A stretch of 64,000 nt of DNA from an uncultured delta proteobacterium (GTDB lineage Bacteria > Desulfobacterota > Binatia > DP-6), in assembly GCA_963811605.1 (NCBI GenBank), contig CAWESA010000013.1:336344-400343 (forward strand). Direction: 5' to 3'. Position numbers and translations under genes: made by a program. Positions 41,859 to 61,773 of this stretch are shown one piece after another. Position 1 is the stretch's first letter, and every line of letters begins with the position of its first letter. The notes under the pieces were generated by a model that searched no databases, was not told the DNA's origin, and saw nothing but the letters and a program-made list of their open reading frames with translations.

Positions 41859-42518
41859 CTAGGACGGCCCGGGTAGCGTGCGCAGGACCACCACCCAGAC
41901 CTCGGACAGCACCGGCAGTACCGGGATGACGCGCTCGAGGCGCAGACCGGCGCTGGTCGCCTCGGCCGCCAGCTCGCGCCTGGTCAGCCGCGGGCTGCGC
42001 TTGGCGTGGCCGCCGAGCCCCCGGCGCACGCGGCGCTGGAAGCTCTTCCACGTGTAGGGATGGCACACGGTGGCGATGACGGGGCCGCGTGCCAGGCCGG
42101 CCATGATGCGGAACATGCGCGTTCGCGTGTCGGCCGGCAAATGCATCATGAAGCGGCTGCTCACGACCGCGTCCACGGACTGCGCGCCGCACGCCGGCCG
42201 CTCGAGATCGGTGCGCAGGTGCCCCAGGGCAGCCCCGCGCCGGTGCGCCACCTCCAGCATGGCGGGCGAGATGTCGGCACCGATCACCCGGTAACCCCGG
42301 CGCCGGAGAAACGCCGACAGGATGCCCGTGCCGCAGGGGGCGTCGAGCACGAGGCTCCCGCGCGGCACGCCGTCGAGGGCCCGCGCGAGGGCGCGTTCGG
42401 TGAGCCGCAGGTTGAGCCGGCGCCCCAGGCTGCCGTAGCGGCGGCGCTCGTAGCGCTCGGCATCGAAATGCCGGTAGCCCCAGCGCGCGTCGTAGTGCTC
42501 GGCCGCCGGCTCCGCCAT
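41859..42518 (-). CDS. Class I SAM-dependent methyltransferase
   Basis: VLDAPCGTG, ADISPAML, RFMMH. Confidence 0.88.
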   Translation of the reverse strand: MAEPAAEHYDARWGYRHFDAERYERRRYGSLGRRLNLRLTERALARALDGVPRGSLVLDAPCGTGILSAFLRRRGYRVIGADISPAMLEVAHRRGAALGHLRTDLERPACGAQSVDAVVSSRFMMHLPADTRTRMFRIMAGLARGPVIATVCHPYTWKSFQRRVRRGLGGHAKRSPRLTRRELAAEATSAGLRLERVIPVLPVLSEVWVVVLRTLPGPS

Positions 42519-42580
42519 GGCGGCGCGACGCTAACAGCACGACCGTGGACTGACAAGGTTCGCCGGCCGGCGGAAGAACC

Positions 42581-44251
42581 CTGAAAGCACCGCTCCTCCT
42601 GCTGCTCGCCTGTCTGCTGCTGTTCTTCAGCGGTCTCGGCGACGTGCCGTTCTACACCCGCGGCGAGCCGCGCGAGGCGCTGGTCGCCCGCGAGATGATC
42701 CGCACCGGCGAGTGGCTGGTTCCCGCCCGGCCGGACGGCGAGCTCACCCGCAAGCCGCCGGCGTACTACTGGGCCGCGGCGACGGCGCTCTCGCTGCTCC
42801 CCGGCCGGCCCGAGCTGGCCGCCCGGCTGCCGTCGGCCCTGCTCGCGACCGCGGGTGTGCTGCTCACCTGGGGGGTGGTGCAGGCGACGTTCGGGGCGGC
42901 GCCGGCGTTCGGCGCGGCCCTGATGCTGGCCACGACGCTCGAGTGGATCCGGGCGGCCACCGTCGCGCGCGTCGACATGGCGCTCGTCGCCGGCCTCACC
43001 CTCCTCTTCGGGGCGTGGCTGGTGATGCTGGCGCGCGAGCGGGAGCGCCCGGGACCGGCGCTGCTGGCAATGGCGATCGCGGGTGCGGCGATCGCCACCC
43101 TGGCCAAGGGCCCGGTCGCCCTCGTCCTGCCCGGGCTGGTGGTCGCCGCGCTCATCGCCGTCCGTCGCCAGCTCTCGCTCCTTCGCAGGCTCGGCGCCGT
43201 CCCGGTGCTGGTCGCCGGCGGCGCGATCGCGGCGCTGTGGTACGGCGCGGCCTTCGCCAAGCACGGCTGGGAGTTCTTCGACATCGTCGCCAGGGAGAAC
43301 TGGCTGCGCTACGTCGACAGCGAGGACGCCGGGACCGGGCACTCGCACGGCCTGCTGTACCTCCCGCTGGTGGGGCTGATCGGTCTCGTCCCGTGGACCC
43401 CGCTGCTGCCGCTGGCGGGAGCGCCTTTCGGCGATCGAACACGACGGTCCCCCGCGCTGACGTTCGCGGCGCTGTGGGTCGTGACCACCCTCGTCTTCTT
43501 CTCGCTCGCCGACGCCAAGCGCAGCGTCTATCTGCTGCCGCTCTTCCCGGCGCTCATGCTGCTCCTCGCGCTCGGCGTGGAGCACCCTCCGGCAGGCCGC
43601 CTGGCCGCGGTCGTGCGGCTCAGCAGCGTGCTCTATCCGCCCTTCTTCGCGCTGCTCGGGTTCGGCGCCGTCGCGCTGGCCTCGGGTGCCGACGTGGTGG
43701 CGCTGCTCCGACCCTGGCTCAAGCCGCGGGACGCGCAGAACACGCTGGCGATCGTCGCCGTGGCACAGGCCGTCGCCCCGGTGCTGCTGGTCCTGGCGGC
43801 GCTCGCACTGGCGGGCGCCTTCCTGATCGTGCGCGCGCGACGGGCCGGCGACTGGCGGCGGCTCGTCCACGTGGTGGCGGCGCTCACGGTGATGTGGACG
43901 GCCGCACTGGGGATCTGGCTCCGCCCGCCGATCGGGCGCGCCGCGAGCCTGCAGCCGTTCATGGCGCGCGTCGACCAGATCGTCCCGGCCGATGCCACGC
44001 TGTACGCCTTCTTCACGCCCGATGCGGGGTTGCGCTTCTATGCCCCGCGGCCGCTCGCGCCATGGCGCGCGCAGAGCCGAGGTCCGGCGTACCTCTTGCT
44101 CTGGGAAGACGAGCGCAAGCAGTGGCGCGATCCCCAGGGCAAGCCGCTCGAGCCGCTCGCGGTCAGCGAGGCCCAGCAGTCGCGCCGCGGGCCGCTCACC
44201 CTGGTGCTGGTTCCGCCCGAAACCACGCTCGGCGCGCGCGGCCCGGGCTAG
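42581..44251 (+). CDS. ArnT-like (GT83/GT39) membrane glycosyltransferase; start uncertain
   Basis: GEPREALVAREM, KPP, RLPS, AKGP, KRSVYLLP; in-frame TGA at 42551 bounds the ORF. Confidence 0.88.
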   Translation: MKAPLLLLLACLLLFFSGLGDVPFYTRGEPREALVAREMIRTGEWLVPARPDGELTRKPPAYYWAAATALSLLPGRPELAARLPSALLATAGVLLTWGVVQATFGAAPAFGAALMLATTLEWIRAATVARVDMALVAGLTLLFGAWLVMLARERERPGPALLAMAIAGAAIATLAKGPVALVLPGLVVAALIAVRRQLSLLRRLGAVPVLVAGGAIAALWYGAAFAKHGWEFFDIVARENWLRYVDSEDAGTGHSHGLLYLPLVGLIGLVPWTPLLPLAGAPFGDRTRRSPALTFAALWVVTTLVFFSLADAKRSVYLLPLFPALMLLLALGVEHPPAGRLAAVVRLSSVLYPPFFALLGFGAVALASGADVVALLRPWLKPRDAQNTLAIVAVAQAVAPVLLVLAALALAGAFLIVRARRAGDWRRLVHVVAALTVMWTAALGIWLRPPIGRAASLQPFMARVDQIVPADATLYAFFTPDAGLRFYAPRPLAPWRAQSRGPAYLLLWEDERKQWRDPQGKPLEPLAVSEAQQSRRGPLTLVLVPPETTLGARGPG

Positions 44252-44301
44252 CACGCTGGCAACGCTACCGGGCCGGCCGCTGGGGCAGGTAGGCCGGGCG
44301 A

Positions 44302-45156
44302 TCAGAGATCGCCGAAGGTGACCCGGCGAATGCCGAGACGCTCGATGGCCGCTCGCACCCGGGGGCTCACGAGGGCGGCGAGCTCGGCCTCGTGCCGGTA
44401 GGACGGCATCCGGCGATCGATCTCCGGCGCGCGGCTCGTGGCCGGGTGGAAGTACATCTCGGCGACGGCGTCCGGCGGCGCCAGCGCGAGGAGCCGCAGC
44501 ACCATCGCTTCGTCCATGGCGCCGCTCGCGCCCAGCCCGAGCACGACGTCGTTCGCGCGGATGTCGAACCGGCGCAGGCGGCGGCGCAGAACTCGCATCC
44601 ACGGCGCCAGGCCCGCGGCGGCGGCGAGCTGCCGGGCGAGCCCGCGGCCGGCGACGCGCCAGCCGATGAGCGGGGGCTCGTAGGGCACCCGCATCGCGCG
44701 CAGACCGAACGCCTGTCCGACCCTGAGGATGATCCCGAGCACCGTCGGGTGGAGATGCATGTGGTTGTGCGCGTTGACGTGGTCCAGGGTGAGGCCGGTC
44801 GCGGCGAAGGCCTCGAACTGGGCCCTGATCTCCGCCTCGAGCTGGCGGCGCGCCTCGACGTCGAAGAAGAACCGAAATCCCGCCGCGACGAGCCGTCGCG
44901 AGAGGTACTCGCCGTCGCCCATCAGCCGCGACACCCGAGCCCGCGGCAGCACCGGTCGATCCTCCACCACCACCACGTGCAGCCCCACGCGCAACGCCGG
45001 CAGACGGCGGGCGCGCGCGATCGCGTCGGCCGCCGCCGCGCCGCCCACCATCAGGCTCGCCGTCGAGAGGATGCCGTCGCGGTGCGCGAGCTCCACCGCC
45101 TCGTTCACCGCCTCGCACAATCCGAAGTCGTCCGCCGTGACGATGAGCCGCCGCAC
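44302..45156 (-). CDS. hpnK: Hopanoid biosynthesis-associated deacetylase HpnK (YdjC family)
   Basis: LIVTADDFG, VGLH, DHVNAHNHMHLHP, EMYFHP. Confidence 0.88.
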   Translation of the reverse strand: MRRLIVTADDFGLCEAVNEAVELAHRDGILSTASLMVGGAAAADAIARARRLPALRVGLHVVVVEDRPVLPRARVSRLMGDGEYLSRRLVAAGFRFFFDVEARRQLEAEIRAQFEAFAATGLTLDHVNAHNHMHLHPTVLGIILRVGQAFGLRAMRVPYEPPLIGWRVAGRGLARQLAAAAGLAPWMRVLRRRLRRFDIRANDVVLGLGASGAMDEAMVLRLLALAPPDAVAEMYFHPATSRAPEIDRRMPSYRHEAELAALVSPRVRAAIERLGIRRVTFGDL

Positions 45157-45204: not shown

Positions 45205-46683
45205 TCAGCCCACCGCTTGCGCCCGGTGCACGTACAGCTCGTCCGTCGACGGCTTGCCGTGCACCGGCGGCGGCAGGCGGATCTCGTAGCGTACGGGCCT
45301 GGCATGATCGCCGACGAGACGCTCCCCCGAGTAGACCTGACCGAACTTCCACAGCATCCTGAAGAAGTTCGTCTGGCCGCGCGCGAGCAGCTTCACCGTG
45401 ATGCCGAAGACGTCGTAGAGCGCGCGCACGCCGAGATGCTTGCGACTGAGCACGTGCTGCGTCTTCACGAACTCCTGGTAGAAGCGCTCGAGCGGGAGTC
45501 GCGTGGGCAGCACGGCGTGCTGCACGTCGAACAGCCGGTAGTCGCGGCTCGTGAAGCGACGGGACTCCGTGAGCCACGTCTCGGTACCCGGATACGGCGT
45601 GTTGATGGTCAGGTTGACGATCTCGGGCACCTCGAGAGCCCACTGCCGGACCACCTCGAAGCGTCGTTCGTCCCAGTCCGGGTCGGCGATGATGTTGACG
45701 GCGACCACGAGCCCGAGCTGGCGGGCGACCTCGAGCGCCTGCTCGTTCTCGCCCAGGTGCACGCGCTTGCGGTGGTGCGTGAGGCCCTCCTCGTCGATCG
45801 CCTCGATGCCGAGGAACATGTAGCGCAGCCCGAGCTTCACCCAGCGGGCGAACACCTCGCGGTTGCGTAGCAGGACGTCGGCGCGCGTTTCCAGGTAGTA
45901 GCGCTTGCGCACGTTGCGGCGATCGATCTCGTCGGCGATCGCCATGCCGTGCTCGGGCCGGATGAACGCGACGTCGTCGACGATGAAGACGTTCGGCTCC
46001 GCGATGCTCGCCAGGTCCTCGCCCGCGGCCTCGGCGGACAGCGTGCGGTAGCTCCGGCCGTAGAACGTCCAGGCGCTGCAGAAGGCGCAGTCCCACGGGC
46101 AACCGCGCGTGAACTCGATGGACGCGCAGGGGTCGAGCTCGCCGATGAAGTACCTGCGTCGTCCGCCGGCCAGGTGGCGCGCCGGCAGGGGATGCTCCAG
46201 GTCGCGCACCAGCAGGGGCGGCGGACCGGTTCCCCGCGAGGTCACCAGGCCGGGGATCGTCTCGAGCGCCGCGCCGCCGGCCAGTGCCTCGATCACGCGC
46301 GGCATCACCCCTTCGCCCTCGCCGCGAACGACGCAGTCGATGGCCCCGTCGGCGTGGACGAGGAGGTCGGCGGCGACGAACGACGCGCTGTGACCGCCCA
46401 CCACGACGCCGCAGGCGGGAAGCGCCGCCTTCGCCGCCCGGGCGAGGTCCACGACCTCGGGAACGTTCGACAGGTAGTTGAGCGAGAAGCCGACCACGTC
46501 GGGCGTCCACTCGGCGAGCACCCGGTCGAAGCGCGCCCGCGGGAACACCTGCAGGTCGAGGAGCCGGACGTGGTGGCCGGCGGCCTCGGCGGCTCCGGCG
46601 ACCCGCTCGAGCCCGAGCGGCTCGAGGCGGAGGTAGATCTCGGAGAAGATCAGCGGGCTCGGGTGGACCAGGAGAACGCGCAC
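45205..46683 (-). CDS. hpnR: Hopanoid C-3 methylase (B12-binding radical SAM)
   Basis: VHPS..YLRLEPLGLE, GGHSASF, CPWDCAFCSAWTFYGRSYR, YLETRADVL, TPYPGTE, FDVQHAVLPT. Confidence 0.88.
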   Translation of the reverse strand: MRVLLVHPSPLIFSEIYLRLEPLGLERVAGAAEAAGHHVRLLDLQVFPRARFDRVLAEWTPDVVGFSLNYLSNVPEVVDLARAAKAALPACGVVVGGHSASFVAADLLVHADGAIDCVVRGEGEGVMPRVIEALAGGAALETIPGLVTSRGTGPPPLLVRDLEHPLPARHLAGGRRRYFIGELDPCASIEFTRGCPWDCAFCSAWTFYGRSYRTLSAEAAGEDLASIAEPNVFIVDDVAFIRPEHGMAIADEIDRRNVRKRYYLETRADVLLRNREVFARWVKLGLRYMFLGIEAIDEEGLTHHRKRVHLGENEQALEVARQLGLVVAVNIIADPDWDERRFEVVRQWALEVPEIVNLTINTPYPGTETWLTESRRFTSRDYRLFDVQHAVLPTRLPLERFYQEFVKTQHVLSRKHLGVRALYDVFGITVKLLARGQTNFFRMLWKFGQVYSGERLVGDHARPVRYEIRLPPPVHGKPSTDELYVHRAQAVG

Positions 46684-46920: not shown

Positions 46921-47910
46921 ATGACGGCGGGCCGCTGGCGCCTCCTGTTCGTCGTCTGCGGCCTGGCGCTGCTCGCGTATCTGCTCGCCGACACGGGCCC
47001 GAAGGCGATCGCGGATTCGTTCGCGGCGCTGTCCTGGCGGCTGCTCATCGTGCTCGTCTTCCCCTGTCTCCTCATCAAGCTGTTCGACACCCTCGGGTGG
47101 CAGATGACGTTCCCCGGCGCCCGCGTGCCGCTGCTGACGCTGGCCCGCGTGCGTCTCGCCGGACAGGCCATCAACACGACGACGCCGACCGGCACGCTGG
47201 GCGGCGACGCGGTGAAGATCTGGATGCTGCGCGATCGCGTCCCGTCGAGCGACAGCCTGGCGTCGCTGATCGTCGCGAAGACCACCATGGTCGCGTCGCA
47301 GGGACTCTTCCTGCTGCTCGGCGTCGTCGTCGCCCGGCGACTCCTGGGGCTCGCCACGCCGCTGGTGCGCGGCATGGAATGGCTCCTCGTGCTCGAGGTC
47401 GCCGCCGTCGTCGGGTTCGTCGCCGTGCAGCTCGCGGGAATCCTGGGGCGCGGACACCGCGCCCTGCGCCGCGTGGGCATCGGCACGGGGCCGAGAATGG
47501 AAGCGGCGGCGCGCGACGCCGATCGCGCCCTCGCGACGCTCTACCGCCGGCGTCCCGGACGGGTCGCGCTCTCGGTGGCCTCGAACCTGCTCGGCTGGTG
47601 CGCCAGCGCCGCGGAGACCTGGTTCATCCTCTTCCTTCTCGGCGCCCCGGTCACCGCCTCGTCGGCGCTCACCATCGAGGCCTTCGCCACCGGCGTGCGC
47701 TTCGCGACGTTCTTCGTCCCGGCCCAGATCGGCGTGGCGGAGGCGGGGTCGGTCGCCGCCTGCGTCGCGCTCGGGCTGAGCGCCGAGATCGGCCTCTCGC
47801 TGAGCCTCGTGCGGCGCGTGCGCGAAGCCGCGTGGACGGGTATCGGCCTGCTGCTCCTGGCGGGCTCGCCGCGGCCAGCGCCGGCCGTCGTGCGCGCGTC
47901 GGAGGTGTGA
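46921..47910 (+). CDS. UPF0104/HpnL-like (LPG-synthase TM, flippase-like) membrane protein
   Basis: RLAGQAINTTTPTGTLGGDAVK, PAQIGVAE, RRVRE. Confidence 0.85.
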   Translation: MTAGRWRLLFVVCGLALLAYLLADTGPKAIADSFAALSWRLLIVLVFPCLLIKLFDTLGWQMTFPGARVPLLTLARVRLAGQAINTTTPTGTLGGDAVKIWMLRDRVPSSDSLASLIVAKTTMVASQGLFLLLGVVVARRLLGLATPLVRGMEWLLVLEVAAVVGFVAVQLAGILGRGHRALRRVGIGTGPRMEAAARDADRALATLYRRRPGRVALSVASNLLGWCASAAETWFILFLLGAPVTASSALTIEAFATGVRFATFFVPAQIGVAEAGSVAACVALGLSAEIGLSLSLVRRVREAAWTGIGLLLLAGSPRPAPAVVRASEV

Positions 47911-47914
47911 CGCC

Positions 47915-49795
47915 ATGTGCGGGATCGCGGGATTCGTGGCTCCGCCCGATGCGCGCGCCGATCCCGCGATCGTCACCCGCATGGTGGCGGCACTGCGTCA
48001 CCGCGGACCCGACGCGGTCGGCTTCCACGTGCGGGGGCGGGTCGCGCTCGGGATCGCGCGCCTGCGAGTGATCGATCTCGAGACCGGCGACCAGCCCATC
48101 GCGTCCGAGGACGGCGCCGTCACGGCGATCCTGAACGGCGAGATCTACGACTTCGCCGGGCGACGCCGTGAGCTCGAGGCGCGCGGTCACGTCTTCCGCT
48201 CGCACGCGGACACGGAGGTGCTCGTTCACGCGTGGCAGGACCTGGGCGAGCGCTTCCTGGACGATCTCAACGGCATGTTCGCGCTGGCCCTGTGGGACGC
48301 GCGCGAGGAGCGGCTCTTCCTGGCGCGCGATCGGATGGGCGAGAAGCCGCTGCACTACGCGCTGGCCGCCGACGGCACCCTCGTGTTCGCCTCCGAGCTG
48401 CGCGCGCTGCTCGCCCATCCCGCGCTGCGCGCGCATCTGGATCTGGCAGGGCTGGCGCGCTACCTGAGCTACGACTACGTTCCCGACCCGCACTCGATCC
48501 TGGACGGCGCGCGCAAGCTGCCCCCGGGACACATCCTCTCCGCCAGCCGGGGTCGCCACGTCGTGCGGCCGTACTGGGACATCCCCTTCGATCCCGAGCC
48601 GGAGGTCGACGCCCGCGAGTGGCTGGTGGAGATCGCCGAGCGCTTCGACCGCTCCGTCGCGCGCCGGCTGGTGAGCGACGTCCCGCTCGGTTGCTTCGTG
48701 AGCGGAGGCATCGACTCCTCGATCGTCGCCGGCACCGCCGCACGCCAGCGGACGGGCATCCAGACCTTCTCGGTCGGCTACGACGACGCACGCCACGACG
48801 AGCGCCCGTGGGCCCGGATCGCGGCGCGACACTTCGGGACGCGGCACGAGGAGCTGACGGTCTCCGCGGGCGATGCCCGCGGCGTGCTGGAGCGGCTCGG
48901 GTCCCTGCTCGACGAGCCGCTCGCCGACATGAGCTTCGTACCGCTCCACCTCCTGTCGCGCGCCGCCAAGGGCACCATCACGGTCGCCCTCACCGGCGAC
49001 GGCGGCGACGAGCTGTTCGCGGGCTATCCCACCATGGCGGCCGACTGGTGGCAGGGCGCGGCTGGCCGCCTGCCGCCGCGCGTCCTGGCGCTGCTGCGCC
49101 GGGGGGCCCGTGCGCTGCCGGCGTGGGGCGCCCCGCTGGGCGAGTTCCTGGCGGCGACGATCTACCATCCCGACGCGCAGAACCAGGTGCTGATCGGTGG
49201 CATCCCGCCGCACGACGCCACGCCGCTGCTGTCCGCGGACATGCGCGCGCAGCTCGGCGCCTTCGATCCCTATGCCGACATCACCGTGGCGCTCGCGGCG
49301 TGCTCGAGCGCGGATGCGACGGCGCGCCTGATCTATCGCTACTGCAAGCTCTACCTGGCGGGACAGAACCTGGTGAACAGCGACCGTGCCAGCATGGCCG
49401 CCGGGCTCGAGCTGCGCGCCCCGTTCCTCGATCACACCCTGGTCGAGCTCATGGGCCGCATCCCCTCCGCGCTCAAGCTGAGCGGCTTTCGCGCCCTGAA
49501 GAGCCTGCTCAAGCGTGCCCTCGGCGACCGCCTGCCGCCCGCCATCCTGCGCCGCGGCAAGCAGGGGTTCGGCGTGCCATTCGGCGACTGGTTCCGCGGC
49601 CCGCTGGCGGGGCTGGTGCGCGACGTTCTGGAGCCTGCGCGCCTGCGCCGCGACGGCCTCTTCGACGTCGCGCGCGTCGGGCAGCTGGTGGACGCGCACC
49701 TGGGGGGCGATCGCGACCACCGGAAGGTTCTCTGGTCGCTGCTCGCGTTCGAGCTCTGGCGCCGCGAGTACCTCGGCGGCGCGGCCACCGCGTGA
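47915..49795 (+). CDS. asnB: Asparagine synthase-like glutamine amidotransferase
   Basis: MCGIAG, HRGPD, NGEIY, SGGIDSS, GDGGDELFAGY, RAPFLD, KQGF. Confidence 0.93.
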   Translation: MCGIAGFVAPPDARADPAIVTRMVAALRHRGPDAVGFHVRGRVALGIARLRVIDLETGDQPIASEDGAVTAILNGEIYDFAGRRRELEARGHVFRSHADTEVLVHAWQDLGERFLDDLNGMFALALWDAREERLFLARDRMGEKPLHYALAADGTLVFASELRALLAHPALRAHLDLAGLARYLSYDYVPDPHSILDGARKLPPGHILSASRGRHVVRPYWDIPFDPEPEVDAREWLVEIAERFDRSVARRLVSDVPLGCFVSGGIDSSIVAGTAARQRTGIQTFSVGYDDARHDERPWARIAARHFGTRHEELTVSAGDARGVLERLGSLLDEPLADMSFVPLHLLSRAAKGTITVALTGDGGDELFAGYPTMAADWWQGAAGRLPPRVLALLRRGARALPAWGAPLGEFLAATIYHPDAQNQVLIGGIPPHDATPLLSADMRAQLGAFDPYADITVALAACSSADATARLIYRYCKLYLAGQNLVNSDRASMAAGLELRAPFLDHTLVELMGRIPSALKLSGFRALKSLLKRALGDRLPPAILRRGKQGFGVPFGDWFRGPLAGLVRDVLEPARLRRDGLFDVARVGQLVDAHLGGDRDHRKVLWSLLAFELWRREYLGGAATA

Positions 49796-49798
49796 GGC

Positions 49799-52875: not shown

Positions 52876-54027
52876 ATGCAACGAGTCGTCTGGCTGCCAA
52901 ACCGAGCTTCCCCACAGGCGCCCCCCCATGGCCGGGTGCGCTTGATCGATCTCGGTCGCGAGTATGGCGCCTGCCGCGACGAGCTGCTCGCCGCATGCGA
53001 CCGCGTCTTCGAGCGCATGCAGCTCCTGGGGGGAGAGGAACTGCGCGCCTTCGAGACCGAGATGGCCGCCTTCCTGGGCGCGAGATTCGTCCGCGGCGTG
53101 GCTTCGGGCACCGACGCCCTCCGTCTCGCGGTGCGCGCCGCCGGCATCGGCCCGGGTGACGAGGTCCTGATCCAGGCGAACGCGTTCGTGGCCGCCGTCG
53201 AGGCGCTGGTCGACGTCGGCGCGCGTCCGGTGCCGGTCGACATCCGCCTCGACGACCTCGGTCCCGATCCCGAGCACCTGGCCGCATTGGTCGGTCCGCG
53301 CACGCGCGCGATCCTGCTGGTGCACCTCTACGGGCTGCCCGTCGACATGCATCCCGTGCTCGCCCTGGCACGCGAGCAGGGCCTCGTGGTGCTCGAGGAT
53401 TGCTCCCACGCCCATGGCGCGACGCTCGACGGCCGCCCGGTCGGCACCTTCGGCGTGGCGGGCGCCTTCAGCCTCGGCGTGGTGAAGAACCTCGCGGCCT
53501 ACGGCGACGCCGGGGTGGTCAGCAGCGATGAATCGGCCATCGCGGAACGCGTCACGCTCCTCGGCAAGCACGGACAGGCCCGGAAGAACGACCATGCCTT
53601 CTACGGAGGGAACAGCCGGCTCGACGAGCTACACGCCGCCATGCTGCGCGTGAAGCTCGGCCGGCTCGCGGCGCGCAACGCCCGGCGCGCCGAGATCGCC
53701 GCGTACTACTCGGATCGTCTGGCGGACCGGGTCGTGGTGCCGCCCGCCGATCCGCGTCGCACCCACGTGTTCCATCAATACGTCATCCGCACGCCCCGGC
53801 GTGAGGCGCTTCGCCAGCACCTCGCCGGCGCCGGGATCGAGACCGGTATCCACTACCCCGTCCCCATCCACCGCCACCAGGCCTGGCGTGATGCGTTCGG
53901 GGAGAGCCCGGCGTTGCCCCGAGCGGAGCAGGTCGCCGCCGAGATCCTCTCCGTGCCCGTACATCCCGACCTCACCGACGCCGAGGTCGAGCGCGTGGCC
54001 GAGAGCGTCGCGGACTTTTTCGATTGA
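52876..54027 (+). CDS. DegT/DnrJ/EryC1/StrS aminotransferase (alternative start 52936)
   Basis: SGTDAL, VHLYG, EDCSHAHG, KNL..YGDAG, NSRLDEL, IHYP. Confidence 0.93.
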   Translation: MQRVVWLPNRASPQAPPHGRVRLIDLGREYGACRDELLAACDRVFERMQLLGGEELRAFETEMAAFLGARFVRGVASGTDALRLAVRAAGIGPGDEVLIQANAFVAAVEALVDVGARPVPVDIRLDDLGPDPEHLAALVGPRTRAILLVHLYGLPVDMHPVLALAREQGLVVLEDCSHAHGATLDGRPVGTFGVAGAFSLGVVKNLAAYGDAGVVSSDESAIAERVTLLGKHGQARKNDHAFYGGNSRLDELHAAMLRVKLGRLAARNARRAEIAAYYSDRLADRVVVPPADPRRTHVFHQYVIRTPRREALRQHLAGAGIETGIHYPVPIHRHQAWRDAFGESPALPRAEQVAAEILSVPVHPDLTDAEVERVAESVADFFD

Positions 54028-55056
54028 TGCAGCTGGCCGCACGCCGGCCGGCGCTCTCCATCGTCGTCCCCGTCTACGACGAGGAAGGGAACGTCGGGCC
54101 CCTGCACGACGAGCTCACGCAGGTGGCGCGCGCGATCGGGCGGTCCTACGAGCTGCTGTTCGTCAACGATGGCAGCCGGGACCGGACGCTCGAGCGGCTC
54201 GAAGCCATCGCGCACACCGACCCGTCATCTTCGCGTGGTCGATCTCGACGGCAACTTCGGTGAGGCCGCCGCGCTGTCGGCCGGATTCAACACGGCGCGC
54301 GGACAGGTGATCGTCACGCTCGACGGCGACGGGCAGAACGACCCGCATGACATCCCGACGCTGCTCGCCCGGCTCGACGACGGCTACGACGCGGTGAGCG
54401 GGCGGCGCCGCTCGCGCGCGGAGGCGTTCCTGAGCCGGGTGCTGCCCTCGTGGGTGGCGAACCGCTTCATCGCCGTGGCCACCGGCGTGCCGGTCCACGA
54501 TTGCGGCTGCGGCCTGAAGGCGTATCGCCGCGAGGTGGTCGCCGGCGTACAGCTTCCACGCGGCATGAACCGCTTCCTCCCCGCCATCCTGGGGCTCGAT
54601 GCCGCACGGGTCGCGGAGATCGAGACCCGGGATCGGCCGCGGGGATCGGGCACGTCCCACTACGGCCTTTCGCGCGTCGCGGTCGTCTTCCGCGATCTCT
54701 TCTCGCTGCCGCTGCTCGTCCGCCGTCCGCCTCCGGGCTACGCGACCGCCGGCGTGCTCGGCGCCGCCGCGATCGCACTCATCGTGCTCGCGACGGTCGC
54801 CGCGCTGCGCGGCTGGCCCGTGAGCGGCGGCCTGCTGGCCACCGCCGCGGGGCTCGCGCTCGCCGTCCGTCACAACGTCATCCGCTTCGCGGACGCCCTG
54901 CAGCACGGCGTGTTCCGCGTGAGGAGGATTCTCCATGGGAGCGCACCAAGCGAGGATCGCCATCGTGGGAGTCGGCTACTGGGGCAAGAATTTGCTCCGG
55001 GCGTTCGGCCGCCTTTCCGGCGCGCGGGTGACGGCCCTGTGCGATCTCGATCCTGA
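54027..55056 (+). pseudogene. GT2 (ArnC/DPM-like) glycosyltransferase, +1 frameshift near 54223 (probably assembly error)
   Basis: SIVVPVYDEE, VNDGSRD then NFGEAAA, LDGDGQNDP, DCGCGLKAYR in the next frame. Confidence 0.85.
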
Positions 55057-55951
55057 CCGGCTGGCGGCCGCACGATCCGCGCATCCCGGCCTGGACAGCA
55101 CCGACGACTTCGCTGCTCTGGTGGCACGCGACGACGTCGACGCCGTCGTGATCGCCACGCCGCCCTCGCGCCATCATGCGATGGCGCTGGCGGCCCTGCG
55201 CGGCGGGAAGCACGTCTGGGTCGAGAAGCCGCTCGCCCTCACGGCCGCCGATGGGCGCGAGCTGGTCGATGCGGCCAAGCGCGGCGGGCACGTGCTCTTC
55301 GTCGACGAGACGTTCCTGTACGATCCGCTTGTGCGCGAGATGAAACGCATCATCGACGCGGGCGGCCTCGGCGAGGTGATGCACCTGTCCTTCGAACGCC
55401 TCGGGATGGGCCGGATCCGGCGTGACTCGGACGTGTGGTGGAACTCGGCGCCGCACGACCTCTCCATCCTGTTTCACCTGGTGCCACGCGCCGTCACCGA
55501 CATCCGCCTGCACCAGCACGCGTACCTGCAGCGGGGGATCGCCGACATGGTGGTCTGCGACCTCGAGCTCGCGGGAGGGGTCTCGGCCCACATCTACCTG
55601 AGCTGGCTGCACCCCGAGAAGACCGCCAAGGTCGTGGTGATCGGGCGCGAGCGCATGCTCGCCTACGAGGGACGCTTCGAGAAGCGCGGCATCACGATGT
55701 ACGACTACTCCCTCGACCTGACGCCCCCGCGGTCGGCCGATGCCGCCGTGCCGATCGTTCCCATCTCCGGCTTCGCGGGCAGGCCGCTGGAGCTGCCCGC
55801 GGCCGAGGAGCCGCTGGCGCTCGCGGCCGCACACTTCGTCGAGTGCATCGCCACCGGCGCCGAGCCCCTCACCAGCGGGGCGCGCTCGCTGCGCGTCGTC
55901 GAGGTGCTGGAACGTGCCGATCGCACGGCCACCCGCGGAGGCACGGCGTAG
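54935..55951 (+). CDS. Gfo/Idh/MocA oxidoreductase
   Basis: GVGYWG, ATP, VEKP, APHD, SWLHP.K. Confidence 0.92.
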   Translation: MGAHQARIAIVGVGYWGKNLLRAFGRLSGARVTALCDLDPDRLAAARSAHPGLDSTDDFAALVARDDVDAVVIATPPSRHHAMALAALRGGKHVWVEKPLALTAADGRELVDAAKRGGHVLFVDETFLYDPLVREMKRIIDAGGLGEVMHLSFERLGMGRIRRDSDVWWNSAPHDLSILFHLVPRAVTDIRLHQHAYLQRGIADMVVCDLELAGGVSAHIYLSWLHPEKTAKVVVIGRERMLAYEGRFEKRGITMYDYSLDLTPPRSADAAVPIVPISGFAGRPLELPAAEEPLALAAAHFVECIATGAEPLTSGARSLRVVEVLERADRTATRGGTA

Positions 55952-56952
55952 TGCCGGCTGGCGGCGGCGCGCGCCGCCGGCTTCTCACCTTGCTGGCGCT
56001 GGCCGTCGGCCTGTCGCTGCTCGGCTGGCTGCTGCATCACACGGGCTTCCAGCCCCTGTGGCAGCGTCTCAAGGTGCTCGGCTGGGCGGCGCCGCTGATC
56101 TTCCTCCCCTATCTGCTGATCACCGTCGCCGACGCGCGCGGCTGGCGCCTGACGCTGCCGGTGCCGCAGCGCGTCCCGCTGCTCGGTCTCATGCTGACGC
56201 GCATGGCTGGCGAAGCGGTGAACAGCCTGACGCCGGGGGCCGCGGTGGGAGAGCCGGTGAAGGCCTATCTGCTGCGGCGCTGGCACGTGACCGCGGCCGA
56301 CGCGCTGGCGTCGGTCGTGATCTCGAAGACCGCGCTGGTGGCCTCGCAGAGCCTGTTCACGGCCCTCGGGGTCGGCGCCCTCCTGTGGAGGCTCGACCGC
56401 CCCCACCTCGCGACCGGCTGGCTCGTCGCGCTCAGCATCGGCTGCGTCGCCTTCACGGCGGGACTCGTGTGGGTGCAACGGCGCAGCCCGGGCATGCTCA
56501 TCTGGAAGCTCCTCCATCGCGTGGCACCGCGCTCCCGTCTGGTGAAGCGCCTGGAAGCCGGCACGTCGGCCTTCGACGGCCGGCTGCGCGAGTTCTATCG
56601 CGGCGAGCCCCGGACCTTCCTGCACGCGACCGTCCTGCACTTCGTCGGCTGGCTCCTCGGGGTGGTGGAGGTCGTCGTGATGGTCACCCTGATCGGCGGC
56701 TCGGTGTCGTGGCTCGACGCCTTCATCATCGAGACCCTGTCGCAGCCGATCCGGGCGACCTCGCTCCTGGTGCCCGCGGGGATCGGGACGCAGGAGCTCG
56801 GCGGCGTGTGGCTGTGCACGTTCCTCGGGATGAGCGAGCCGGACGCGGTCACCCTGTGGCTCCTCAAACGGGCGCGCGAGCTCTTCTTCGACGGCATCGG
56901 CTTCGTCTACCTGGCCCAGCGCGGCGGCCGGCGCGCCCTCCGGGCGACGTGA
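55951..56952 (+). CDS. UPF0104/HpnL-like (flippase-like) membrane protein
   Basis: RMAGEAVNSLTP, GEPVK, PAGIGTQE, KRARE. Confidence 0.85.
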   Translation: MPAGGGARRRLLTLLALAVGLSLLGWLLHHTGFQPLWQRLKVLGWAAPLIFLPYLLITVADARGWRLTLPVPQRVPLLGLMLTRMAGEAVNSLTPGAAVGEPVKAYLLRRWHVTAADALASVVISKTALVASQSLFTALGVGALLWRLDRPHLATGWLVALSIGCVAFTAGLVWVQRRSPGMLIWKLLHRVAPRSRLVKRLEAGTSAFDGRLREFYRGEPRTFLHATVLHFVGWLLGVVEVVVMVTLIGGSVSWLDAFIIETLSQPIRATSLLVPAGIGTQELGGVWLCTFLGMSEPDAVTLWLLKRARELFFDGIGFVYLAQRGGRRALRAT

Positions 56953-57950
56953 CGCCGCCGCTCGAGCTGCGATCGCTCGGCCGCAGCGGCCTCACCGTCT
57001 CGCGACTCGGCGTGGGGCTCGCCGCGATCGCGCGTCCGGGCTACATCACGCTCGGCCGGCGCCGCGACCTCGGCGAGATCCGCACCGGCGAGGCGCTCTA
57101 CGCCCGCTGCGCGGCGGTGCTCGACGCCGCGCGGACCGCCGGCGTGCGCTACATCGACGTCGCGCGCAGCTACGGTCGCGCCGAGGAGTTCCTCGCACGC
57201 TGGCTCACCGAGCGGGGCGTACCCCTCGAGGCCCTGACCGTGGGCAGCAAGTGGGGGTATCGCTACACCGCCGGCTGGGCAGTCGACGCGCGGGTCCACG
57301 AGCAGAAGGAGCTGTCGGCGGATCGCTACCGCGCGCAGGTCGCGGAGAGCCGGGCGTTGCTCGGAGATCGGCTGGCGCTCTATCAGATCCACAGCGCCAC
57401 CGCCGAGTCGGGAGCGCTCGAGGATGGCACGCTGCTCGCGGCGCTGGTGGACGGACGCCGCGCGGGGCGCTTCCGGGCCGTGGGACTCACGCTCAGCGGC
57501 ACCGACTCGGCGCGTGCGCTCGATCTGGCGCTGGCGGCGCGCGTCGACGGGGAGCGGGTGTTCGACGTCGTGCAAGCGACCTTCAACGTGCTCGAGCCGT
57601 CGCTGGCCGCGGGCCTCGCCGCCGCTCACGCGGCCGGGCTCGGGGTGATCGCGAAGGAGGTACACGCCAACGGGCGGCTGACCGACGTCAACGACCGGTC
57701 CGACGACGCCGGGATGCTCGCCGGCCTGCGCGCGGTGTCGCCCGGGCTGCCCGTCGATCGCCTGGCGGTCGCCTTCGCCCTGTCGCATCCCTTCGTGGAC
57801 GTGGTCCTCTCCGGCGCTGCCACGGCGGCGCAGCTGGCGTCCCACGTGGCAGCCGTCGGCGCCGCGCCGATCGACGTCGCCGCGCTGGGTGGGTTCGCCG
57901 AGCCGGTCGAGCGTTACTGGCGCACGCGCGGAGCGCTGCCCTGGACCTGA
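56949..57950 (+). CDS. Aldo/keto reductase
   Basis: DVARSYG, GSKWG, LYQIHS, ATFN. Confidence 0.9.
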   Translation: MTPPLELRSLGRSGLTVSRLGVGLAAIARPGYITLGRRRDLGEIRTGEALYARCAAVLDAARTAGVRYIDVARSYGRAEEFLARWLTERGVPLEALTVGSKWGYRYTAGWAVDARVHEQKELSADRYRAQVAESRALLGDRLALYQIHSATAESGALEDGTLLAALVDGRRAGRFRAVGLTLSGTDSARALDLALAARVDGERVFDVVQATFNVLEPSLAAGLAAAHAAGLGVIAKEVHANGRLTDVNDRSDDAGMLAGLRAVSPGLPVDRLAVAFALSHPFVDVVLSGAATAAQLASHVAAVGAAPIDVAALGGFAEPVERYWRTRGALPWT

Positions 57951-58609
57951 TCGGCGCGCAGCACACGCCCCAGCAGCACCAGCGTCACCAGCCAGAAGAG
58001 GTTCGAGCCCAGGGCGGCGGCGGGAACGAGCAGGTCGAGCCGACCGGCGAGCGCGAACGCGACCGGGAACACGTACCAGTCGCGTGTCGTGAGCGGGCCG
58101 AGGATGCCGTCGAGCACCCCGTTCTCCCAGCGCGTCACGCGCCGGCGACGGGCCTCCGTGGCTTCGCTCAGCGTGATCACGCCGAAGGCTGCCACCACGC
58201 CGAGCCCCAGCGCGAGCAGCTCCCACCGGCCGGGCAGCACGCTCGAGCGCGCCAGCCGCCGCACGATGCCCGCGAGCAGCGCAGCGTGTACGACCGTGTC
58301 CCCGATGACGTCGAGCGCGTGCCCGAGCCGGGACGTCGTCCCGCGGCGGCGCGCCAGCTCGCCGTCGGTGCAGTCGAGCACGCCCGAGACGATCAGGCAG
58401 AGCACGCCCAGGACCGTCCCCGCGGCACGCGGGCTGCCGACGAGCAGGCCGCCCGCGACCCCGATGGCGGCGCCGGCGACGGTGACGGCGTTGGCGGACA
58501 GGGACGTGGCCAGCAGACGCCGCGTCACCGGACGCGCGAGCGGACGGTAGAGCAGCCGGTCGATGTAGCCGTCGCGGGGGTTCGCCCCCGCCGATGCCGC
58601 GGCGCTCAT
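57914..58609 (-). CDS. CDP-alcohol phosphatidyltransferase family protein
   Basis: Full signature DCTDGELARRRGTTSRLGHALDVIGD. Confidence 0.92.
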   Translation of the reverse strand: MSAAASAGANPRDGYIDRLLYRPLARPVTRRLLATSLSANAVTVAGAAIGVAGGLLVGSPRAAGTVLGVLCLIVSGVLDCTDGELARRRGTTSRLGHALDVIGDTVVHAALLAGIVRRLARSSVLPGRWELLALGLGVVAAFGVITLSEATEARRRRVTRWENGVLDGILGPLTTRDWYVFPVAFALAGRLDLLVPAAALGSNLFWLVTLVLLGRVLRADQVQGSAPRVRQ

Positions 58610-59352
58610 GCGCCGGCGCGGGGCGCGAGCGCGGCGATCCGTGGGAGCACCTCGCGCGTGGCGCGTACGACGTCGTCGGGGAAGTCGATCTCGATCCAGG
58701 GGAGGCCGTCGACGCGCTCGAAGCCCACCGCCACCCGCGACAGCAGCTCCGGGTAGACCTCCTCGTGCTCGATCTCCGTGTCGCCGGCCTGGACGTGCCG
58801 CTCGAGCAGCCGGCGCAGCAGGCGCGCGGCGTCCGCGGACAGCTTGAGAAAGCCGATCGACTCGCCCATCAGCTCGTAGCCGGGGGCGCCGCCGCGCACG
58901 ATGTCGCGCACGCGCCCGTCCCGGACGAGCAGCATCTGCTCCTCGCCGGTGTTCTCCTGGCTCGCGTCGAGCAGGAAGCAGTTGGCATGCGGGGACCGCA
59001 CCAGGCGCTCGAGCATGACGGGGGCGCACAGGACGTCGGCGTCCATCACCAGCACGTCGCCGGCGAGCGCCTCGCGCGCCGTCCACAGCGACAGGATCGC
59101 CCCTTCCCGGTAGCGCGGATTGGTGACGCAGGAGACGCCGATGGGCGGCCGGGCGGCGGCCACCGCGGCGCGCACGGCCTCGTCGCCGAATCCCGTCACC
59201 ACCATGGCGTCGCGCACGCCGAGCGAGGCCAGGGTGTCGAGCAGGCGGAGGAGCAAGCTGCGCCCCGCGATCTCGATCAGACACTTGGGCCTGCCGCCGG
59301 ACGTGCCGAGCAGGCGCTTGCCGACGCCGGCGGCGAGGACGATCGCCGTCAC
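58606..59352 (-). CDS. LicC/PntC-like (phosphocholine or phosphonate) cytidylyltransferase
   Basis: LAAGVGKRL, PKCL, MDADV, GEE, GESIG, WIEIDFPDD. Confidence 0.88.
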   Translation of the reverse strand: MTAIVLAAGVGKRLLGTSGGRPKCLIEIAGRSLLLRLLDTLASLGVRDAMVVTGFGDEAVRAAVAAARPPIGVSCVTNPRYREGAILSLWTAREALAGDVLVMDADVLCAPVMLERLVRSPHANCFLLDASQENTGEEQMLLVRDGRVRDIVRGGAPGYELMGESIGFLKLSADAARLLRRLLERHVQAGDTEIEHEEVYPELLSRVAVGFERVDGLPWIEIDFPDDVVRATREVLPRIAALAPRAGA

Positions 59353-60059
59353 GAGCGCCTGGGCGCGAGGACCGCGGTCACGCGCGCCTTGACGGCGGGC
59401 GTGATCCACGACGGGACGAGCTCCTCGCGGAAGCGTCGCAGCGCCTCGGCCGAGACGTCCGTGACGCCGGCGCGCAGCGCACGCTTCGTGGCCACGTAGG
59501 CCTCCCGCGGATGTCCCGCCAGCGTCTCGAGCCGCGCGCGCGCGGTGGCCTGGACGTCGGCCGCGATCTCGTCGGCGAGCCCGAGCGCGAGCGCGGTCGG
59601 CGGGTCGTACAGCGCGGCCTCCAGCACGACGCGCTCGAGGGCGCGGGGGGGAACGCGATGGCGGACGATCGCGAAGATGACGGGAGGAAACTGGACGCCC
59701 AGCGCGACCTCGTTGAGTCCCATGCGCAGCGTCGGCCGATCGGCGAGCACGCGGTGATCGGCGCACTGGGCGATCACGCAACCGCCCGCGATGGCGTGCC
59801 CGTTGATGCAGGCGACCACGGGGGCGGGATGGTTGAACAGGGCCTCCGCCATGCGCTCGAGCGTGCCGAGAAACCGCTCCGCGCCGGCGCGATCGAGCCC
59901 CGCGACCTCCTTCAGATCCAGCCCGGCCGAGAACGCATCGCCGGCCCCGGCGAGCAGCACCGGGTCGCCGTTTGCTTCCCGCAGCCGGCTGATGATCGAC
60001 TCCATCATCGCGGTGGAGAGCGAGTTCTTCCCCGGGCCGTCGAGCGAGAGGGTGTACAT
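59349..60059 (-). CDS. Enoyl-CoA hydratase/isomerase family protein
   Basis: FSAGLDL, INGHAIAGG, GLNEVALG. Confidence 0.9.
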   Translation of the reverse strand: MYTLSLDGPGKNSLSTAMMESIISRLREANGDPVLLAGAGDAFSAGLDLKEVAGLDRAGAERFLGTLERMAEALFNHPAPVVACINGHAIAGGCVIAQCADHRVLADRPTLRMGLNEVALGVQFPPVIFAIVRHRVPPRALERVVLEAALYDPPTALALGLADEIAADVQATARARLETLAGHPREAYVATKRALRAGVTDVSAEALRRFREELVPSWITPAVKARVTAVLAPRRS

Positions 60060-60108
60060 CGCGGCACAGTCCGCGTAGCGCAAGCGAGAAATACGAGCAA
60101 GGGATCCC

Positions 60109-60702
60109 ATGGACGCGCGCCGCCACGCACCCGCCGCCGAACGGAACCGAGGACCGATCCTCGAGGTCCTGCGCGACGTCGTGCCGTCGCATGGGCGCGT
60201 CCTCGAGGTCGCGAGCGGCACCGGGCAGCACGTCGCCCACTTCGCGGCCGCGTTGCCCGCGCTGATCTGGCAGCCGAGCGAGGCCGACGAGACGATGCAT
60301 GCCTCGATCGCGGCGTGGACCGCCGGGCTGCCCAACGTGCGCGCCCCGCTGGCGCTGGACGCCACCGCGGCATCGTGGCCGGTTCCCGCCGTCGACGTGG
60401 TGTACGCCGCGAACCTGATCCACGTCGCACCCTGGAACGTGTGTCTCGGTCTGCTCGACGGTGCGGGCCGGCACCTGGTCCCGGGCGGGCTGCTCGTCCT
60501 GTACGGTCCCTATCGCATCGAGGGCACGCATACCGCGGCCAGCAACCACGACTTCGATCGACAGCTGCGCACGAGCGATCCGCGCTGGGGCGTTCGCGAC
60601 CTCGAGGCCGTGCGCGACGCCGGCACGGCGCGCGGGCTACAACTGGCACGGCGTCACGACATGCCGGCCAACAACCAGACGCTGGTCTTCCGCCGCGACT
60701 GA
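60109..60702 (+). CDS. DUF938 family methyltransferase-like protein
   Basis: APAAERNR.PIL, LEVASGTGQH, WQPS, YGPY, MPANN. Confidence 0.92.
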   Translation: MDARRHAPAAERNRGPILEVLRDVVPSHGRVLEVASGTGQHVAHFAAALPALIWQPSEADETMHASIAAWTAGLPNVRAPLALDATAASWPVPAVDVVYAANLIHVAPWNVCLGLLDGAGRHLVPGGLLVLYGPYRIEGTHTAASNHDFDRQLRTSDPRWGVRDLEAVRDAGTARGLQLARRHDMPANNQTLVFRRD

Positions 60703-60720
60703 GCGCGCGAGCCGCCGGGC

Positions 60721-61773
60721 TCAGCCGGGGAGCACCTCGCCCAGCACGGCGAGGAAGCGCGCGAAGTCGCCGCGTGCGAGCGCTCCCATGTTGGCGACGC
60801 GGAACGCCTCGCGCGCGAACCACCCCTGGCCCTCGTAGATCACGAAGCCGCGGGCCTTGAGGGCGTCGTGCAGCGCGCCGTAGGTGCGCCCGGCCGGGAA
60901 CCGCACCGACGTGATGGTGTTGGAGCGCAGCGGCGGCGGCAGGACGCACGTGAGGCCGAGGCGCTCGAATCCCTCGCGCAGCTGCGCCGCCGCGGCGGCA
61001 TAGCGCGCGATGCGGCCGGGCACCGTCTCCTCGAGCAGCTCGGCCAGCGCCTCGTCGAGAGCGTACGCAACCTGCACCGCCGGGGTGAACGGCATGGCGG
61101 ATCGCGCGTAGGTGGCGAGGGAGAGGTAGAGCGAGCGGCGCGGGTAGGCGGCCAGCCGTTCCAGCACTTCCTCACGCACCAGCACGAACGCGATGCCCGG
61201 GAACGCCTGGATGCACTTCCCGCCCGTGCCGGCGACCAGGTCGCAGTCCCCGGCGTCGAGGGTGTCGCCGGCGAGCCCGCTGACGGCGTCGACCAGCACC
61301 AGCTTGCCGAGGGCGCGCGCCCGGCGCGCCACCTCCGCGACGGGATTCATCAGGCCCGTCGTGGTCTCGTGATGCACGACCGCGACCGCCTCGACGTCCG
61401 GGGCGCGCAGCGCAGCCTCGACCGCGTCGAGATCCGGCGGCGACGTCCAGGGCGACGCGACGACCGTGTGCGCCACGCGCGCGGCGGCGGCCATCGTGGC
61501 GATGCGCTCTCCGTAGACGCCGTTCGACACGATCACGAGCCGCCCGCGCTCCGAGCACACGCTGGCGACGGCCGCCTCCACCGCGGCCGTCCCCGACCCG
61601 GTGAGCAGCACGGCGGCGAATCCGCCCCGGGGCGCGAAGGCGTCGAGGAGCCGGCTGCGGACGCGGGCCAGCAGCTCGCTGCATTCCGGCTCGCGATGGC
61701 AGAGATCGCCCCGTCCGAGCGCCGCGGTGACGCGCGGCGAGACGTTCACCGGTCCGGGATTGAGCAGGATCAT
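60721..61773 (-). CDS. phnW: 2-aminoethylphosphonate transaminase-like class V aminotransferase
   Basis: LLNPGP, GSGT, NGVYGER, VHHETTTG, DAVS, GKCIQAFPG, FTP, GFVIY.G. Confidence 0.8.
   Translation of the reverse strand: MILLNPGPVNVSPRVTAALGRGDLCHREPECSELLARVRSRLLDAFAPRGGFAAVLLTGSGTAAVEAAVASVCSERGRLVIVSNGVYGERIATMAAAARVAHTVVASPWTSPPDLDAVEAALRAPDVEAVAVVHHETTTGLMNPVAEVARRARALGKLVLVDAVSGLAGDTLDAGDCDLVAGTGGKCIQAFPGIAFVLVREEVLERLAAYPRRSLYLSLATYARSAMPFTPAVQVAYALDEALAELLEETVPGRIARYAAAAAQLREGFERLGLTCVLPPPLRSNTITSVRFPAGRTYGALHDALKARGFVIYEGQGWFAREAFRVANMGALARGDFARFLAVLGEVLPG

Follow-up and report, generated by a model that had tools for sequence, protein, structure and literature searches.

A predicted aminoethylphosphonate lipid pathway with a variant PEP-mutase-like enzyme, linked to hopanoid head-group genes in Binatia

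The described system closest to the locus analysed here is the phosphonolipid cluster called 'Group 1' or 'Burkholderiales_CDP-OH', which is predicted and, in the portions of its sources that treat it, never chemically characterised (PMC8942020, PMC5987646). In it, a phosphoenolpyruvate (PEP) mutase, Ppm, is fused to a PntC-like domain and accompanied by Ppd, an aminoethylphosphonate (AEP) transaminase, a second PntC, a CDP-alcohol transferase and an HpnL-like gene. For Nitrosococcus GCF 731, where phosphonate and squalene/hopene genes co-locate, the relevant parts of PMC8942020 and PMC7285500 carry a speculation about a 'phosphonoterpene', and of the three Binatota clusters reported in the pertinent part of PMC8692599 none is for a phosphonate. 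Here we examine 64000 bases from a genome of the class Binatia (the window, G000:C13:336344-400343; G000 is the source genome, 5.85 Mb in 24 contigs and rated 100% complete) against a comparison set of 121 genomes of the class, which carry G-numbers and are grouped into families with f-numbers. In the window and just beyond it lies a conserved set of genes whose products probably synthesise AEP, use CTP to activate it and pass it on to a membrane lipid, a hopanoid polar head being the predicted acceptor in this lineage; what the genes are and how they are linked can be read directly, and their activities are predicted from sequence. Within that reading our confidence is divided about equally between a hopanoid head group and diacylglycerol. 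Profile scores are given throughout as bits/curated cut-off, and class counts treat genes as linked when they lie ≤25 kb apart on one contig.

In the proposed pathway, a PEP-mutase-like enzyme with a cysteine in its loop would convert PEP to phosphonopyruvate, a two-subunit Ppd would decarboxylate this product and so pull the unfavourable equilibrium, AepZ would form AEP by transamination, a stand-alone PntC would yield CMP-AEP, and a CDP-alcohol phosphotransferase would move the AEP group to the lipid acceptor, with an HpnL-like protein possibly aiding export. HpnI, HpnK and HpnJ would build the glucosamine and cyclitol ether of bacteriohopanetetrol (BHT). The genes concerned are these (window positions unless a contig is named):

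55951..56952, plus strand: HpnL-like protein b, conserved here (TIGR03476 163-165/195.65)
57914..58609, minus strand: CDP-alcohol phosphotransferase, predicted head-group transfer (PF01066; motif DxxDG..AR..G...D...D intact)
58606..59352, minus strand: stand-alone PntC/LicC-type cytidylyltransferase (top PDB match PntC 6pd1, then LicC 1jyk; GxGxR intact)
60721..61773, minus strand: AepZ/PhnW-type AEP transaminase, single copy (TIGR03301 308/360.8; best PDB matches AEP transaminases)
G000:C13:402295-403355, minus strand: split Ppd, ppdB (beta) and ppdA (alpha) (TIGR03297 positions 171-358 and 1-156, below cut-off)
G000:C13:403364-404965, minus strand: PEP-mutase-like enzyme fused to a nucleoside triphosphate (NTP) transferase-type domain, pepM (TIGR02320 263/319.55; best PDB match 5unc, E 6.6e-79)
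G000:C13:405179-407837, plus strand: hpnJ and hpnI (HpnJ 691/577.6; HpnI 369.5/310)

The last three entries begin only past base 64000, at a distance of 2-7.5 kb (ppd and pepM at 2-4.6 kb), and the boundary of the island described in the first-pass annotation is set by the window edge. That annotation had recorded shc, hpnH/G/I/J, pepM and ppd as absent from the window, which is correct, yet apart from hpnG, for which there is only a sub-cut-off match (98.7/187), they are present in the genome: in addition to the genes just past the window end, a profile search finds hpnH and two copies of shc above cut-off on other contigs. The genome does not lack shc, an absence that the annotation had named as refuting its reading, and the annotation's suggestion of a phosphonolipid-type pathway stands, the PepM-like enzyme, split Ppd, AepZ, PntC and CDP-alcohol transferase being present and syntenic in relatives. 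One shc is interleaved with mevalonate-pathway-like genes (C1:102148-109738) and the second sits beside hpnC-like and mevalonate-like genes (C10:519595-530137), the neighbours being labelled from sequence starts. Neither aepZ nor the CDP-alcohol transferase has a close paralog in G000. At 61770-64000 the window holds a MocR/PdxR regulator and, transcribed divergently from it, a pyridoxamine-phosphate-oxidase-like gene; this pair separates aepZ from ppd in G000, G080, G088, G009 and G096, and aepZ adjoins ppdB in G045, G054, G036 and G112.

The linkage of these genes to one another and to the hopanoid genes recurs in the class. From the first ArnT-like gene (ArnT1, listed below) through aepZ, ppd and pepM, the run is kept in all eight family relatives read, although several carry insertions and G120 has lost some of the genes; in seven of the eight, hpnJ-hpnI come next. 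Among the 121 genomes aepZ occurs in 40 (13/14 in f1, 10/14 in f7, 14/14 in f8, none in f9 or f10), and it lies near hpnJ or hpnK in 33 of these; it is far from them in none, on another contig in five, and in two both hpn genes are missing. The arrangement varies by family: pepM stands head to head with hpnJ in f1; f7 has one run pepM-ppdA-ppdB-aepZ-pntC-hpnK, with the CDP-alcohol transferase head to head with hpnJ; and in f8, HpnM-like and HpnN-like genes (the HpnN profile is below cut-off and the HpnM label comes from sequence and position alone) are followed by ppdA-ppdB-aepZ-pntC-hpnK facing hpnI-hpnJ, with pepM elsewhere. The CDP-alcohol transferase is near hpnJ in 22 of 47 genomes (far in 10, on another contig in 15), AEP-less families included, and in genomes of f11 and f13 without AEP genes the NTP transferase, CDP-alcohol transferase, hpnL and hpnK are still clustered. 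The transferase has a short form in the genus of G000 and is 349-404 aa long in most other relatives.

The PEP-mutase-like enzyme of G000 carries the loop EDNEFPKRCSF (variant EDNxFPKRCS, hereafter KRCS) instead of EDKX5NS, a motif found in none of 16 Binatia copies chosen by homology. Of the metal, substrate and catalytic residues, listed in the part of PMC7916636 that treats PEP mutase and its Mg, D58, D85, D87, E114, R159, H190 and S123 are all conserved when the protein is aligned to 1m1b, and N122 to C is the sole change. The protein matches the canonical Mycetohabitans AepX across 527 residues, including the fused domain, and among solved structures a PEP mutase is its best match. In trees that carry a long-branch warning, the variant, canonical PepM and phosphonopyruvate hydrolase stand apart from isocitrate-lyase-type lyases with support of 100/100, and positions of the variant as sister to or nested with the canonical mutases are both accommodated (approximately unbiased test, AU p=0.29). 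Both trees hint that canonical PepM was born inside the KRCS group; we make no such claim, as KRCS monophyly is not rejected in a test for which 24 of 56 rows were dropped. The fold predictions (a single-sequence model with a pLDDT confidence of 40, and an alignment-based one with 94.9 and an alternating strand/helix barrel pattern) carry no conclusion.

The variant is widespread. At ≥62% identity it is found in 42 of the 121 class genomes, and 39 genomes have both variant PepM and aepZ. A DNA scan for the KRCS motif matched at least 119 stretches, of which 80 were retrieved; all 80 sit in PepM homologs, and in the 46 that are full-length 16-kb loci both ppd halves are found in 33, pntC in 24, aepZ in 22 and the CDP-alcohol transferase in 16. 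At least six phyla are represented (Planctomycetota, Myxococcota, Nitrospirota, Acidobacteriota, Actinomycetota, Binatia and others), with the cultured Sorangium and Minicystis among the carriers. One genome, G060 (n=1), combines orthologs of ppdA-ppdB-aepZ-pntC with a canonical EDK..NS PepM and lacks the variant; the canonical fusion stands alone there and the AEP genes lie elsewhere (C51 and C24), a possible natural swap. Directly behind the variant pepM in several families, at 10 of the 80 motif loci, is a conserved 321-aa protein with weak matches to the squalene-hopene-cyclase barrel, usually followed by a Rieske ferredoxin (L050:12279-13588, also in G007, G045, G051, G063 and G112; absent from G000). 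In the Actinomycetota loci L060 and L071 an unfused variant pepM is accompanied by ppdA-ppdB-aepZ, a CTP_transf_like gene and LicD, a gene set that suggests a surface glycan, not a lipid, as destination. Ppm is defined or filtered by EDKX5NS in the relevant parts of PMC6697681, PMC8942020 and PMC12723261, and Rice et al., in the section concerned, discarded 22 fused Ppm-family proteins for missing it; the variant, which has EDNxFPKRCS in that place, would therefore fall out of motif-filtered inventories. We found no description of the KRCS variant in the literature searched, which excluded most subscription journals.

Like the Group 1 cluster, the locus has two PntCs, one of them fused to Ppm. 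The NTP domain fused to PepM lacks GxGxR in 74 of 74 matches, some of them counted twice, and the other NTP matches have it in 56 of 66, several of the remaining 10 being mis-sorted fused domains. The fused domain is thus probably non-catalytic, and since the stand-alone gene is closest to PntC, it is likely the activator.

A number of observations weigh against the reading of an AEP lipid with a hopanoid head group as acceptor, some concerning the acceptor and others the chemistry. With regard to the acceptor, the same AEP pathway might act on an ordinary glycerolipid and give diacylglyceryl-AEP in a Kennedy-like manner, the link to hpnI/J/K then reflecting shared head-group regulation or inherited gene order; we regard this as a serious possibility, though a doubtful one. 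In its favour, the pathway persists without shc: no shc match was found in 10 of 42 Binatia carriers, among them G014 (100% complete, 3 contigs, with no hpnH either) and G005 (98%, 6 contigs), and both shc and hpnJ are missing from five complete myxobacterial genomes, four of Sorangium and one of Minicystis, so that the pathway does not need a hopanoid everywhere. (These Sorangium and Minicystis genomes also have no close AepZ.) Among the 50 non-Binatia carriers, which are the 80 motif loci less 17 judged to be Binatia and 13 short ones, shc scores above cut-off in 16 and hpnJ in two, and hpnJ lies within 8 kb in only 1 of the 46 full loci. In Binatia, hpnJ occurs in 30 genomes without variant PepM; at G120:C3:146577-161512 hpnJ, hpnI, hpnK, the CDP-alcohol transferase, omp85, GT2 and gfo are lost and pepM, ppd, aepZ and pntC kept; in f8 the hpn cluster is mostly distant from pepM and from the CDP-alcohol transferase, and the distant CDP-alcohol transferases, 31-41% identical, are putative orthologs only. 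As the 33 linked genomes come from only four families, themselves related, they are not independent draws. A Mycetohabitans Group 1 cluster of like design has no hpnI/J/K annotated in 18.8 kb, in a table that is itself incomplete, and has an MMPL transporter close by. What speaks against a glycerolipid acceptor is that in four families the AEP genes remain interspersed with hpnK, hpnJ and hopanoid-export-like genes despite rearrangement, and that the CDP-alcohol transferase, hpnL and hpnK keep together in the AEP-less f11 and f13 genomes. A ceramide acceptor was set aside for G000, where no AONS/Spt-family gene was found and such an acceptor is therefore unlikely; between a hopanoid head group and diacylglycerol the balance for G000 is about even. 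The most specific form of the hopanoid reading, that Binatia make a phosphonate-capped hopanoid in which AEP is placed by a CMP-AEP transferase on BHT glucosamine or cyclitol ether, 3-methylated in G000, with the C-P bond formed by a Cys-loop PEP mutase family present in at least six phyla, we offer tentatively and consider rather unlikely as a whole. We found no phosphonate-bearing hopanoid in the literature searched, again with most subscription journals outside it. Separately, hpnJ above cut-off with no shc or hpnH match and no adjacent hpnI is seen at G014:C3:1878503 and 2760138, G059:C119 and G100:C9 (L243-L247), with hpnK also in G014 and G059; such an hpnJ may be a remnant, serve scavenging or have a non-hopanoid substrate. 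Lawrence et al., in the passages on HpnJ, report it only alongside SHC and HpnH.

With regard to the chemistry, the KRCS enzyme might be no PEP mutase at all, acting as a Cys-dependent lyase or hydrolase or feeding a non-phosphonate analogue (a sulfonate, for example) through ComDE-like subunits, in which case no C-P lipid would be made; this we consider improbable. The absence of EDKX5NS from all 16 Binatia copies chosen by homology counts towards it, as does the cysteine at position 122, the same as in the lyase-type KRCG motif, at a loop position that most authors, in the parts of the literature that discuss it, hold responsible for mutase as opposed to hydrolase chemistry. TIGR02320 is the best-scoring family yet falls below cut-off, as do TIGR03297 (split) and TIGR03301 for the other core proteins; the mutase and hydrolase profiles are close (263 versus 251 bits), and the Ppd halves score nearly as high to sulfopyruvate decarboxylase (ComD/E). 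In f8, moreover, the gene is apart from ppd and has genes for a cyclase-fold protein and a Rieske ferredoxin as its neighbours. A mutase is favoured by the full-length homology and the fusion shared with canonical AepX, by the tree position, by the presence of ppd at most 8 kb away at 33 of 46 loci and by the apparent exchange for a canonical PepM in G060. PntC-type activation, for its part, requires a phosphoryl or phosphonyl substrate, which also argues for a mutase.

The AEP core shares the window with other genes, and three envelope-lipid gene modules together make up a mosaic locus: the AEP core, an amino-sugar/ArnT/Omp85 module and an hpnK-hpnR-hpnL-asnB cassette. The remaining features are as follows:

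41859..42518, minus strand: S-adenosylmethionine (SAM) methyltransferase (Pfam Methyltransf_25), travelling with the amino-sugar module
42644..44251, plus strand: ArnT-like GT-C glycosyltransferase 1 (ArnT1), amino-sugar module (PMT_2; PRK13279 88.5/567), kept in relatives
44302..45156, minus strand: hpnK, YdjC deacetylase, local cassette (TIGR03473 355.8/232.6), the sole hpnK of G000
45205..46683, minus strand: hpnR, B12 radical-SAM hopanoid C-3 methylase, local cassette (TIGR04367 825.8/650; B12 domain, CxxxCxxC)
46921..47910, plus strand: HpnL-like (LPG_synthase_TM) protein a, local cassette (TIGR03476 170/195.65)
47915..49795, plus strand: AsnB-type glutamine amidotransferase, local cassette (TIGR01536 423/267)
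49799..51088, minus strand: Omp85-type barrel (PF01103), start approximate, marker of the amino-sugar module
51043..52777, minus strand: ArnT-like GT-C glycosyltransferase 2 (ArnT score 86/567), frameshift near 51977
52936..54027, plus strand: DegT-family sugar aminotransferase, likely of C-3 type by solved-structure ranking
54027..55056, plus strand: ArnC-like GT2 (PRK10714 99/529), frameshift near 54225, with a predicted role in polyprenyl-phosphate loading
54935..55951, plus strand: Gfo/Idh/MocA oxidoreductase (best NCBIfam UDP-GlcNAc 3-dehydrogenase, 124.8/450)
56949..57950, plus strand: aldo-keto reductase (PF00248)
59349..60702, both strands: enoyl-CoA hydratase (minus) and DUF938 (plus), inserted between aepZ and pntC

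The genes that the first-pass annotation listed for 41859..61773 are real and lie about where it placed them; HpnR, HpnK and AsnB are above their cut-offs, and for the rest the best family is below its cut-off. The interval also holds the aldo-keto reductase, enoyl-CoA hydratase and DUF938 genes, which were not on its list. The methyltransferase keeps its place in seven of eight family relatives, the eighth having been read only from ArnT1 onward; the aldo-keto reductase is present in all eight relatives read and not seen in G036, and the hydratase/DUF938 insertion is missing at the corresponding spot in all eight. GC is flat at ~0.70-0.74 and GC at third codon positions (GC3) at 0.88-0.96 across the window, so that composition marks no island.

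Both frameshifts are likely assembly errors, certain for neither, because the second ArnT-like and GT2 genes are whole in most relatives and the extra GT2 base, at 54227, is absent from one contig of the independent run X2 (depth 2.4). The two frames of the second ArnT-like gene tile the intact protein of a relative in sequence comparison; its break near 51977 lies outside the X2 pieces, which cover the locus only in short stretches. A 992-aa 'ArnT-Omp85 fusion' reading frame is a product of the frameshift and no real fusion.

It is very improbable that all of these modules form one pathway leading to a 3-methylhopanoid that carries an amino sugar and AEP. All the genes do lie within ~30 kb in G000, the cassette has the sole hpnK, and the order from ArnT1 to hpnI, minus the cassette, is kept in f1. 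This is nevertheless a reading that the distribution of the genes has already largely refuted, and a single pathway to a decorated 3-methylhopanoid, one of the two product types inferred in the first-pass annotation, is not supported. The synteny that the annotation had suggested examining holds for the run from ArnT1 to pepM and, over four families, for the phosphonate genes with hpnI/J/K; the hpnK-hpnR-hpnL-asnB cassette, by contrast, is found behind ArnT1 in none of the eight relatives. Of 19 hpnR loci, drawn from 16 of 25 family genomes, 2 have the cassette, those of G000 and G072, which leaves a 3-methylhopanoid-specific pathway unsupported. Of the 40 genomes with aepZ, one has hpnR near it, and in 25 no hpnR was found. 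The omp85 marker occurs in 44 of the 121 genomes (12/14 in f1, 13/14 in f9, 9/13 in f10, 0/14 in f7 and 0/14 in f8), so that it is missing from 28 f7 and f8 genomes, 24 of them with aepZ, and common in the aepZ-less f9 and f10; the amino-sugar module and the AEP core are distributed independently and overlap mainly in f1. G027, which retains omp85 and shc, has no match for pepM, aepZ, hpnJ, hpnK or the CDP-alcohol transferase.

The cassette is likely a recent local arrival. Its hpnK is ~40-46% identical to the different hpnK that most relatives keep near hpnI or pntC, and G000 has paralogous hpnL and asnB pairs on C6 and C7, with 57% and 69% identity. The stretches C6:1497-25338 and C7:561-22534 (hpnL-like, asnB, GT-C-like and transport genes) are near-identical, through duplication or strain redundancy. 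The HpnR itself matches TIGR04367 and has the B12 domain and CxxxCxxC; Lawrence et al. caution, in the relevant part, that the profile also catches uncharacterised proteins. A second hpnR, on C8, is 61% identical to it. A further HpnL-like gene, at G000:C24:227265-240833, is accompanied by DegT, several B12 radical-SAM-like and ketosynthase-like genes, labelled from sequence starts.

For the amino-sugar module, which the first-pass annotation set beside ArnB/C/T-type modules, the Arn profiles are far below cut-off (ArnB 191/631, ArnC 99/529, ArnT 88/567), other sugar aminotransferases rank above ArnB, and the top solved relatives of the DegT protein include QdtB and WbpE (E 1e-68 to 1e-61; ArnB only 1e-47), which we take to be C-3 aminotransferases. 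The combination of a C-3-type DegT, Gfo, GT2 and a pair of GT-C enzymes implies that a 3-amino sugar is borne by polyprenyl phosphate, and, judging by sequence, these proteins likely make such a sugar, load it and transfer it to an envelope acceptor, which may be lipid A. Two lpxA copies are above cut-off in G000 (C11:127563 and C22:160684). A second gfo-degT pair, with acetyltransferase-like and glycosyltransferase-like genes, lies at G000:C12:264235-273690, likely an aminosugar surface-glycan locus.

The phosphonate-producer counts in the relevant parts of PMC6697681, PMC8942020 and PMC12723261 rest on the single EDKX5NS motif. Should the KRCS enzymes prove to be true mutases, about one third of the sampled Binatia (42/121) are uncounted phosphonate producers, as are members of the Myxococcota, Planctomycetota, Nitrospirota, Acidobacteriota and Actinomycetota, which is testable in cultured Sorangium and Minicystis. 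A phosphonate-bearing hopanoid, if it exists, would be a new lipid class, a candidate job for HpnL and a link between a major biomarker family and the soil phosphorus cycle.

Nitrosococcus GCF 731 is known, from the portions of its sources that describe it, for a motif-bearing Ppm near squalene synthase and cyclases and for a tool prediction; the Binatia differ in that the linked hopanoid genes are those for the side chain, in that the linkage is counted over a class and in that the enzyme is non-canonical. With the HpnI-HpnK-HpnJ cyclitol-ether pathway the Binatia locus has in common all three proteins above cut-off, and its genome also carries shc and hpnH. It differs in its physical tie to phosphonate genes, in that the hpnK of G000 is a replacement copy ~24 kb from hpnJ, and in that some Binatia keep hpnJ or hpnK without a shc or hpnH match. 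The Group 1 cluster remains the closest precedent, and the HpnL-like protein b shares 31% identity with the HpnL-like gene product encoded in the phosphonolipid cluster of Mycetohabitans; the comment of TIGR03476 reportedly mentions HpnL homologs near AEP-lipid genes. The Binatia locus differs from Group 1 in a Ppm without EDKX5NS, a Ppd split in two and the interleaving with hpnI/J/K. A 2-oxoglutarate Fe(II) oxygenase, a core feature of Group 1, was not seen among the locus genes scanned, two of whose proteins have no family match, which points to AEP rather than hydroxy-AEP. With the Arn (L-Ara4N) system, finally, the amino-sugar module shares the logic of an aminotransferase, a polyprenyl-phosphate GT2 and an ArnT-like GT-C, in a genome with lpxA; it differs in its C-3-type DegT with a Gfo dehydrogenase, its two ArnT-like genes and its Omp85 barrel, and no ArnA/D/E/F were seen at the locus. 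The Francisella Flm/NaxD and Bordetella Lgm hexosamine systems follow a comparable aminotransferase/GT2/GT-C logic.

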